DNA of 64,000 nucleotides from Escherichia coli (lineage in GTDB: Bacteria > Pseudomonadota > Gammaproteobacteria > Enterobacterales > Enterobacteriaceae): the NCBI RefSeq assembly GCF_045037415.1, contig NZ_CP173438.1; one strand, 5' to 3'. Positions 62,201-64,000 of this stretch are shown here, piece after piece. The position numbers were made by a program. How positions within the stretch are numbered: the first letter of the stretch is position 1; each line of letters starts with the position of its first letter.

Positions 62201-64000
62201 ATCAACACACTGAACACTTTCTTTAGTGCTGGTGGTAAAGGTGCGAATGTGACGGTGCCTTTTAAAGAAGAGGCTTTTGCCAGAGCGGATGAGCTTACTG
62301 AACGGGCAGCGTTGGCTGGTGCTGTTAATACCCTCAAGCGGTTAGAAGATGGACGCTTGCTGGGTGACAATACCGATGGTATAGGTTTGTTAAGCGATCT
62401 GGAACGTCTGTCTTTTATCCGTCCTGGTTTACGTATTTTGCTCATCGGCGCTGGTGGAGCATCTCGCGGCGTACTACTGCCACTCCTTTCCCTGGACTGT
62501 GCGGTGACAATCACTAATCGGACGGTATCCCGCGCGGAAGAGTTGGCTAAATTGTTTGCGCACACTGGCAGTATTCACGCGTTGGGTATGCACGAACTGG
62601 AAGGTCATGAGTTTGATCTCATTATTAATGCAACATCCAGTGGCATCAGTGGTGATATTCCGGCGATCCCGTCATCGCTCATTCATCCAGGCATTTATTG
62701 CTATGACATGTTCTATCAGAAAGGAAAAACTCCTTTTCTGGCATGGTGTGAGCAGCGAGGCTCAAAGCGTACTGCTGATGGTTTAGGAATGCTGGTGGCA
62801 CAAGCGGCTCATGCCTTCCTTCTTTGGCATGGCGTTCTGCCTGATGTAGAACCGGTCATCAAACTATTGCAACAGGAGTTGTCAGCGTGAATCAGGCCAT
62901 CCAGTTTCCGGATAGGGAAGAGTGGGACGAGAATAAAAAATGTGTATGTTTTCCCGCTCTCGTGAATGGTATGCAACTGACATGTGCGATCTCTGGCGAG
63001 AGTCTGGCGTATCGCTTTACTGGAGATACACCAGAACAGTGGTTAGAGAGTTTTCGTCAGCATCGCTGGGACCTGGAAGAAGAAGCGGAAAACTTAATTC
63101 AGGAACAAAGTGAAGATGATCAAGGTTGGGTGTGGTTACCCTGATCCATATATTCGTCCTTCCATTTCACGTAGTTATTTGCGGAATAGCGTAACCCAGC
63201 CTTCTCTTCATCACTTAACGGGCGGATCTGTTTGACGGGGCTACCGAGATACAGATATCCGCTCTCCAGCCGTTTATTTTGTGGGACCAGGCTACCTGCA
63301 CCAATCATCACATCATCTTCTACTATTGCGCCATCAAGTAAAATTGAGCCCATCCCAACCAAAACTCGATTGCCAATGGTGCAGCCGTGGAGCATCACCT
63401 TGTGACCAATAGTGACATCTTCGCCAATGGTTAATGGGTTGCCAGCTGGGTTGTACGAGGATTTATGAGTGACGTGCAACATACTGCCATCCTGGATATT
63501 GGTGCGTGCTCCGATCTGTACATAATGTACATCTCCACGAATCACAACGAGCGGCCAGATCCCCACATCATCAGCCAGACGAACGTCACCAATCACGACG
63601 CTGCTATCGTCGATCATTACGCGCTGACCGATTTGTGGAAAAAGATCGCGGTATGGGCGTAAAACCTCAGACATACTCACCTCAACAATAAATGATTTAC
63701 TAATGACTTTGGGTACATTATTGGCCTTGTGCAAGTCTTTTAGTATGCAAAAAAGCACCGTTTTGTGTGCGAATGCAGCAAAAAGGGTGAAAAAACAACA
63801 AACAGAAAAAAAGATCAAAAAAGTACTTGTGCAAAAAATTGGGATCCCTATAATGCGCCTCCGTTGAGACGACAACGTGAAACACTTCACAAGATAGTCG
63901 TAACAACAAAGAGAAAAATCCTGAAATTCAGGGTTGACTCTGAAAGAGGAAAGCGTAATATACGCCACCTCGCGACAGTGAGCTGAAAACCGCGTCGCAA

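Follow-up and report, generated by a model that had tools for sequence, protein, structure and literature searches.

The right end of the window, by which we mean the whole 64 000-nucleotide stretch of Escherichia coli DNA analysed here, contains the minus-strand gene yrdA followed by the promoter region of the rRNA operon rrnD, which occupies the last 326 bases (63675–64000) and faces rightward on the plus strand, as judged from alignment and gene order (Table 1). The segment 63100–64000 is 100% identical to E. coli SK1144 and to many E. coli chromosomes and is matched in 5,420 of the 5,426 complete E. coli genomes; positions 6–50000 are 99.988% identical to SK1144. In that chromosome the plus-strand genes dprA–smg–yrdD–tsaC–aroE–yrdB are followed by yrdA on the minus strand and then, again on the plus strand, by the genes for 16S rRNA, tRNA-Ile, tRNA-Ala and 23S rRNA, with the 16S gene starting at the position equivalent to 64145, 145 bp beyond the end of the window. 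The same arrangement is found at rrsD/yrdA of K-12 MG1655. The observations described below leave us in little doubt that 63675–64000 is the rrnD control region, that yrdA starts at the ATG at 63674 and that the open reading frame (ORF) upstream of this ATG is an artefact and not part of a protein.

Table 1. Features of the yrdA–rrnD region and identity of its segments to the rRNA operons of K-12
Feature or segment	Position	Strand	Description	Identity to K-12 rrnD	Identity to other K-12 operons
yrdA coding sequence	63120–63674	−	184 aa, gamma-carbonic-anhydrase-like, hexapeptide repeats; RefSeq annotation of an identical genome maps exactly		
yrdA Shine–Dalgarno sequence	63677–63683	−	GAGGTGA; GAGG core 5 nt before ATG		
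98-codon N-terminal extension of yrdA, very probably spurious	63675–63968	−	Antisense of P2, P1, UP element and Fis region		
Candidate Fis site I	63785–63799	+	GGGTGAAAAAACAAC; centred at −71 from the P1 start		
UP element of rrnD P1	63803–63825	+	−60 to −38; CAGAAAAAAAGATCAAAAAAGTA; 78% A+T, long A runs		
rrnD P1 core promoter	63827–63863	+	TTGTGC, 16-nt spacer, TATAAT, discriminator GCGCCTCC; probable start G 63863	100%	57–65%
Palindrome	63920–63932	+	Perfect, 13 bp; CCTGAAATTCAGG; ends one base before the P2 −35 hexamer		
rrnD P2 core promoter	63934–63969	+	TTGACT, 16-nt spacer, TAATAT; probable start C 63968 or 63969		
boxB-like hairpin of the rRNA leader	63972–63998	+	GCGAC...GUCGC		
Segment from yrdA ATG to P1 −35	63675–63826			96.1%	27–42% (other six)
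Segment between P1 and P2	63864–63933			91.7%	63% (rrnH/E); ∼42% (rrnA/B/C/G)
Segment from P2 to window end	63934–64000			98.5%	98.5% (rrnH); 92.5% (rrnE); 67% (rest)

The rrnD promoters and leader

The control region was compared with the 490 bases upstream of each 16S gene of the seven K-12 operons, which were aligned to the window extended from an identical genome. Its segments are 91.7–100% identical to the experimentally characterised promoters of K-12 rrnD, in agreement with an earlier note on this DNA, which had placed the end of the window inside an rrnD-type control region. The operon is specifically rrnD, as seen from the sequence upstream of P1, the aroE–yrdB–yrdA neighbours together with the Ile/Ala spacer tRNAs, and the G in the P1 start column. 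The elements come in the same order as in K-12 rrnD, with identities of 100% in the P1 core, 96% upstream of P1 and 98.5% in the P2 region, and the two loci share the divergent yrdA, the genes for tRNA-Ile and tRNA-Ala within the operon and G at the aligned P1 start. Over 63675–64000, 13 aligned columns differ, 11 of them by substitution and two through an indel of 2 nt, which leaves the A run between P1 and P2 2 nt shorter in the window (5 A at 63912–63916) than in K-12 (7 A), and in the proximal UP subsite the window has G at 63823 where K-12 rrnD has A, which still fits the consensus; the hexamers and the discriminator are free of differences.

A scripted motif check returned the coordinates of both promoters exactly as the earlier note had given them. 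In P1, the −35 hexamer TTGTGC (63827–63832) and the consensus −10 hexamer TATAAT (63849–63854) are separated by a 16-bp spacer and followed by the G+C-rich discriminator GCGCC(TCC) at 63855–63862. The columns that hold the −10 hexamer, spacer length and GCGCC are invariant in the seven K-12 operons, as is TATAATGCGCC of P1. In P2, the hexamers are TTGACT (63934–63939), which is likewise invariant in all seven operons, and TAATAT (63956–63961). The −10 hexamers of the two promoters thus lie 107 bp apart upstream of the 16S gene, in the tandem arrangement typical of rrn operons, in which P1 and P2 are ∼120 bp apart, P1 serving fast growth and P2 basal expression (PMC4696680). At the column aligned to the rrnB P1 start, the window and rrnD alone have G and the other six K-12 operons have A. 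Since rrnD P1 is GTP-responsive and the other six rrn P1 promoters initiate with ATP (PMC9239199), we place the P1 start, provisionally, at G 63863. For P2, the deletion end points of Gaal et al. (PMC5110994) point to C 63968 or 63969 as the probable start.

The A-tract-rich stretch that the earlier note had described upstream of P1 was recovered at 63803–63825; from its composition and its place at −60 to −38 it appears to be an A+T-rich UP element and is predicted to bind the alpha subunits of RNA polymerase. Within it, 63817–63825 (AAAAAAGTA) fits the proximal UP subsite consensus, which according to Estrem et al. is reportedly AAAAAARNR. All seven rrn P1 promoters have been described as carrying UP elements (PMC4696680), and rrnD P1 is activated by Fis (PMC5110994). 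The candidate Fis site spans 15 nt and is bounded by G and C, in columns that align just upstream of the rrnB UP element. Fis sites are degenerate, and the strict consensus GNNYRNNWNNYRNNC had no matches in 63675–64000 and fewer matches in the whole window than in its shuffles.

Comparison with rrnB shows a common design of P1, with a −35 hexamer starting TTGT, a 16-bp spacer, TATAAT and a GCGCC discriminator; rrnB P1 also has an A+T-rich UP element, upstream Fis sites (a candidate in our case) and a P2 promoter ∼110 bp downstream, as here. Upstream of the −35 hexamer, however, the two are not alignable (30% identity), and the UP element of the window is built from A tracts in place of the AAAATTATTTT pattern. 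They further differ in the P1 start base (G in the window, A in rrnB), and the P1–P2 segment and the P2 −10 hexamer TAATAT are of the rrnD/H/E subtype, whereas rrnB P2 has TATTAT.

The palindrome in front of the P2 −35 hexamer is common to rrnD, rrnH and rrnE of K-12 and is 100% kept in Salmonella. When read on the minus strand, it has a terminator-like score. The leader hairpin downstream of P2 has a predicted folding energy of −9.4 kcal/mol, which by itself is not significant (z = −0.8), and compensating changes distinguish its stem from that of rrnA/B/C/G (GCCGC...GCGGC). In the identical genome, the antitermination sequence boxA (TGCTCTTTAACAA) follows in the leader at window-equivalent positions 64002–64014, starting 2 nt past the end of the window. 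Rfam and tRNA scans of the window gave no match within 63675–64000.

Nine E. coli alleles, picked to span 97–100% identity, were compared for the conservation of these elements. The four hexamers and the discriminator are unchanged in all nine, and the changes within the core promoters are confined to two single substitutions in the spacer of P1 and a deletion of 1 nt right after the P2 −10 hexamer. The corresponding locus of Salmonella enterica was found by looking up proteins that match the sequence of PDB 3R3R exactly. Identity to it reaches 93% at −74 to −61 (63789–63802), 83% in the UP element, 95% in the P1 core and 100% at 63912–63961, and falls to ∼60%, in a gapped alignment, from the yrdA ATG to −75 and from P1 to 63911. 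Such element-peaked conservation marks regulatory DNA and not coding sequence.

The start points, the functions of the UP element and Fis and the regulatory behaviour are carried over here from published work on K-12, and the identity to K-12 rrnD suggests that transcription from P1 and P2 would be under growth-rate and stringent control (PMC5110994, PMC4696680, PMC9239199). In rrn operons, Fis is bound upstream of the UP element, and regulation is set by the initiating nucleotide together with ppGpp and the G+C-rich discriminator (PMC4696680). With its weak −35 and perfect −10 hexamers, 16-bp spacer and G+C-rich discriminator, P1 would be expected to form short-lived open complexes that are sensitive to ppGpp/DksA and to the initiating NTP, which at rrnD P1 is likely to be GTP, so that the promoter would sense its concentration. 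Its strength may derive from the A-rich UP element touching the C-terminal domains of the alpha subunits and, further upstream, from bound Fis. P2 would act as the basal promoter ∼105 nt downstream of P1, followed by the leader hairpin, boxA and the 16S gene.

The start of yrdA and the reading frame upstream of it

Mechanical ORF calling on the minus strand yields a 282-aa frame (63120–63968) that starts with GTG and, as the earlier note had pointed out, crosses P1 and its UP element in antisense. This frame is not an artefact of the window edge: in an identical genome with more flanking sequence it is also 282 aa long and is closed by an upstream stop. The mechanical yrdA ORF of K-12 is 256 aa. 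Translation from the ATG at 63674 gives a 184-aa protein beginning MSEVLRPY. Seven concurring lines of evidence support this ATG, which the earlier note had also preferred, as the start of yrdA. AGGTGAG stands immediately upstream (the minus strand reads GTTGAGGTGAGT-ATG), and this ATG alone has a Shine–Dalgarno match among the eight possible starts in the frame (63968 to 63674), the GTG at 63968 being one of those that lack it. The calculated duplex with the anti-Shine–Dalgarno sequence has an energy of −6.9 kcal/mol for ATG 63674 and −1.8 kcal/mol or weaker for every other start, and GAGGT is kept in 9/9 E. coli alleles and in Salmonella.

Homology begins at the same place. YrdA has the left-handed beta-helix domain of the gamma-carbonic-anhydrase-like hexapeptide-repeat family and is similar over its full length to solved members. 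Domain matches (Pfam Hexapep, PF00132, E = 6.9e-19) are confined to the C-terminal 184 residues of the 282-aa ORF, and each of 41 solved relatives starts to match at residues 95–121 of that ORF. The E. coli YrdA structure 3TIO (E = 1e-118) matches residues 2–184 of the protein, so that 3TIO/3TIS correspond to residues 100–282 of the long ORF, and the Salmonella structure 3R3R begins at the same Met. The protein of the window has the length and start of UniProt P0A9W9 and PDB 3TIO/3TIS, and shows six differences over the 183 positions that align with the crystallised K-12 chain; these are allele differences apart from H for R at position 6, where the deposited chain departs from the K-12 genome translation and the two strains agree. 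All nine RefSeq records sampled annotate yrdA as 555 nt. Comparison of E. coli with Salmonella reveals coding-type conservation in the 184-aa part only, with identities of 89, 92 and 47% at codon positions 1, 2 and 3. Between the ATG and P1, neither a generic scan nor a relaxed minus-strand search detected a convincing promoter for yrdA, the latter giving one weak candidate (CTAAAA, 15-nt spacer, AATAAT; 63743–63717). A literature search for direct evidence on the YrdA N-terminus returned none.

Judged by its sequence, the 98-codon extension does not look like a genuine coding segment: a Shine–Dalgarno sequence is missing, the frame is broken among strains, Salmonella has a stop codon in it and no homologue was found in Pfam and solved-structure searches with the 282-aa ORF. 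It has 38% GC, versus 49% in the core, and consists mostly of Phe, Ser, Cys, Ile, Leu and Val, a bias to be expected when A tracts are read backwards. In the nine alleles, the longest ORF over yrdA measures 282, 282, 256, 293, 293, 256, 293, 256 and 212 aa, because the A runs at 63805 and 63913 carry indels by which the frame is shifted or broken; despite these indels, the 184-aa part, its ATG and GAGGT are fixed. The ATG is conserved in Salmonella, but the frame is closed there by a TGA nine codons before it, and there is no alternative start.

Over-extended YrdA in databases and the literature

The earlier note had also expected automated annotation to mis-call yrdA and to hide the promoters. 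Versions of 256, 282, 232 and 212 aa do exist, but current RefSeq calls the 184-aa protein, and the mis-call is historical and partial and not inevitable. We looked up every start variant of the window's yrdA allele by exact sequence. The 184-aa product is present in at least 1000 contigs, the 256-aa product in 159, the 282-aa product in three (e.g. BAI56644.1 and ANK03757.1), the 212-aa product in three and the 232-aa product in one; the 251-, 204- and 186-aa products of this allele were absent from the collection. When the start is called wrongly, the GTG at 63890 (256 aa) is the one usually chosen, and not the GTG at 63968. Sister alleles of the 256-aa form account for hundreds more contigs, many of them named 'gamma carbonic anhydrase family protein', and older records of the 256-aa type carry the name 'putative transferase' (EDL933, Shigella sonnei Ss046). 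Over-extension is thus real and persists in GenBank, as a minority outcome that has been corrected in current RefSeq.

One such record has entered the experimental literature. Del Prete et al. (2020) had WP_009008373.1 synthesised as a 771-nt gene for a 256-aa 'EcoCA-gamma', which was expressed and assayed and for which CO2 hydratase activity is reported; the '72 additional amino acids' struck the authors of this kinetic and inhibitor study as puzzling (PMC7470111). EcoCA-gamma consists of the 184-aa YrdA plus 72 spurious residues, and these residues are the reverse-strand reading of rrnD P1, its UP element and the Fis region.

Alternative readings and significance

Could the P1 and P2 matches be chance resemblances, or relics that are inactive in this strain? 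Of the two promoters, a generic scan of the control region detects only P2 (9/12 consensus bases) and misses P1, whose −35 hexamer matches just 3/6 consensus bases, and the total count of the scan is no higher than in shuffled sequence. Since the scan is uninformative for this reason, the case for the promoters rests on homology and not on consensus matching: the P1 core is entirely identical to K-12 rrnD P1, the hexamers are invariant in nine E. coli alleles and kept in Salmonella, and an intact rRNA operon lies downstream. A weak −35 hexamer is, moreover, a known working property of rrn P1 promoters. We therefore attach hardly any probability to chance or decay and retain the view that these are the rrnD promoters. 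Just as improbable is that yrdA starts two codons earlier than the ATG, with GTG 63680, which would give a 186-aa protein beginning MSMSEV. This codon is in frame and merely 6 nt away, but it sits inside the Shine–Dalgarno sequence GAGGTGA and so has no ribosome-binding site of its own (duplex energy −1.5 kcal/mol). Its exact product is absent among 15 billion proteins, and the codon itself is missing in K-12 and in STEC719, 1070/13, RM8352 and C3, where the sequence reads GAGGTAAGT.

Another challenge to the 184-aa start is that E. coli might make a longer YrdA (256 or 282 aa) with a Phe-rich, hydrophobic, Escherichia-specific N-terminus, e.g. a membrane anchor. A 72-codon stretch, which given the base composition would stay open by chance in only ∼1% of cases (0.3–0.5% for 98 codons), is open in 8/9 alleles, numerous database records carry the 256-aa form, and its recombinant version is soluble and catalytically active (PMC7470111). 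With ∼4,000 genes per genome, however, an open-frame event of 1% is expected dozens of times, and the activity of a His-tagged recombinant construct is uninformative on the cellular product. All upstream starts lack a Shine–Dalgarno match, and neither Pfam nor the solved structures offered a homologue for the extension; within E. coli, the frame is broken or shifted by changes in A-run length and, in strain S87, by a 1-nt insertion, and the Salmonella stop lies just upstream of the same ATG. The mRNA would, in addition, have to begin within the busiest promoter of the cell or past it, on the opposite strand. Synonymous and non-synonymous changes among seven E. coli alleles (4 and 5 in the extension, 9 and 6 in the core; Fisher p = 0.68) are too few to discriminate. 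We consider a longer YrdA very unlikely and keep to the 184-aa protein.

Two unconventional readings may be added, to which we jointly give very little credence. One is that E. coli and Shigella translate a little of a long, hydrophobic-headed YrdA from rare antisense transcripts across the rrnD promoters; if true, promoter DNA would recently have given rise to a lineage-specific extension of the N-terminus. The other is that the yrdA promoter and the 5′ end of the gene contribute to the clustering of rRNA operons in the 'bacterial nucleolus'. This nucleolus-like clustering needs the rrnD P1 region plus its Fis-site region (PMC5110994), and the 'Fis-site' deletion of Gaal et al. (2016) that abolished it spanned −397 to −60 of P1 (PMC5110994). 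By our arithmetic, that deletion also takes out the promoter of yrdA together with roughly 70 codons from the start of the gene.

The biology here is already known: the rrnD P1–P2 region ranks among the most thoroughly studied promoter regions of bacteria, and RefSeq, UniProt and the crystal structure all have the 184-aa start of yrdA, so that the locus offers little new biology and the practical value of the analysis is one of data hygiene. When the longest ORF is called, an rRNA promoter read in antisense becomes 72–98 fake residues. The one useful by-product is that an annotation error which still lingers is explicitly tied to a published study of the enzyme, and those who use EcoCA-gamma data or build protein families should know what the extra segment is.

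Sequence of the rrnD control region

Alignment of the rrn upstream regions of K-12 showed that the perfect 13-bp palindrome CCTGAAATTCAGG that precedes P2 (see the table) is common to rrnD, rrnH and rrnE and is missing in rrnA, rrnB, rrnC and rrnG. It is 100% conserved in Salmonella. On the minus strand, a T run comes after the palindrome, and its score is terminator-like.

The same region varies among E. coli strains in the length of its A runs. The run in the P1–P2 interval (63912–63916) consists of 5, 6 or 7 A, and the one in the UP/Fis region (63799–63812) carries an additional A in strain S87. 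These polymorphisms alter the P1–P2 spacing by no more than 2 bp; because of them, the mechanical yrdA open reading frame (ORF), i.e. the longest open frame, ranges from 212 to 293 aa among strains. The mechanical ORF of aroE is over-extended like that of yrdA, starting with GTG at 62045 and encoding 281 aa, whereas the RefSeq protein has 272 aa (N-terminus METYAVFG...). The convergent genes yrdB and yrdA share 25 bp at their 3' ends (63120–63144), an overlap present in all annotations examined.

Features in and beyond the rrnD region of the window
Feature	Coordinates	Strand	Remarks
gspO	26686–27358	−	Prepilin peptidase of type II secretion cluster; frameshifted
Alpha operon ribosome-binding-site element (RF00140)	50351–50462	+	Rfam, 102.7 bits
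aroE, mechanical ORF	62045–62890	+
aroE, RefSeq	62072–62890	+
yrdB	62887–63144	+
yrdA	63120–63674	−
Palindrome	63920–63932		13 bp, perfect; last base one before the P2 −35 hexamer

Other features of the window

The alpha operon element, found at its expected place in the ribosomal protein gene region downstream of secY, was the sole Rfam match at gathering score within the whole window, and a tRNA scan of the whole window revealed no tRNA genes. In the type II secretion cluster, gspO falls into two ORFs (113 aa and 133 aa) because the window has a single copy of CCAAG at about 27020–27030, as opposed to two in strain SK1144. Genomes sharing the exact allele of the window have gspO annotated as a 'frameshifted' pseudogene.

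Published descriptions of rrnD

Maeda et al. (2015; PMC4696680) assign tRNA-Glu in their text to the rrnD spacer, whereas the operon beside yrdA holds tRNA-Ile and tRNA-Ala in both the K-12 RefSeq record and SK1144 (loci compared: L001 5656–5850 and L002 459–653).

In the study by Gaal et al. (2016; PMC5110994), whose text nowhere mentions yrdA, clustering of rRNA operons was abolished by a deletion of 'Fis sites' extending from −397 to −60 relative to the rrnD P1 start. By coordinate arithmetic, this interval corresponds to positions 63466–63803 of the window and the yrdA ATG lies at −189. Thus, the yrdA promoter and about 70 codons from the start of yrdA were lost in the deletion as well.
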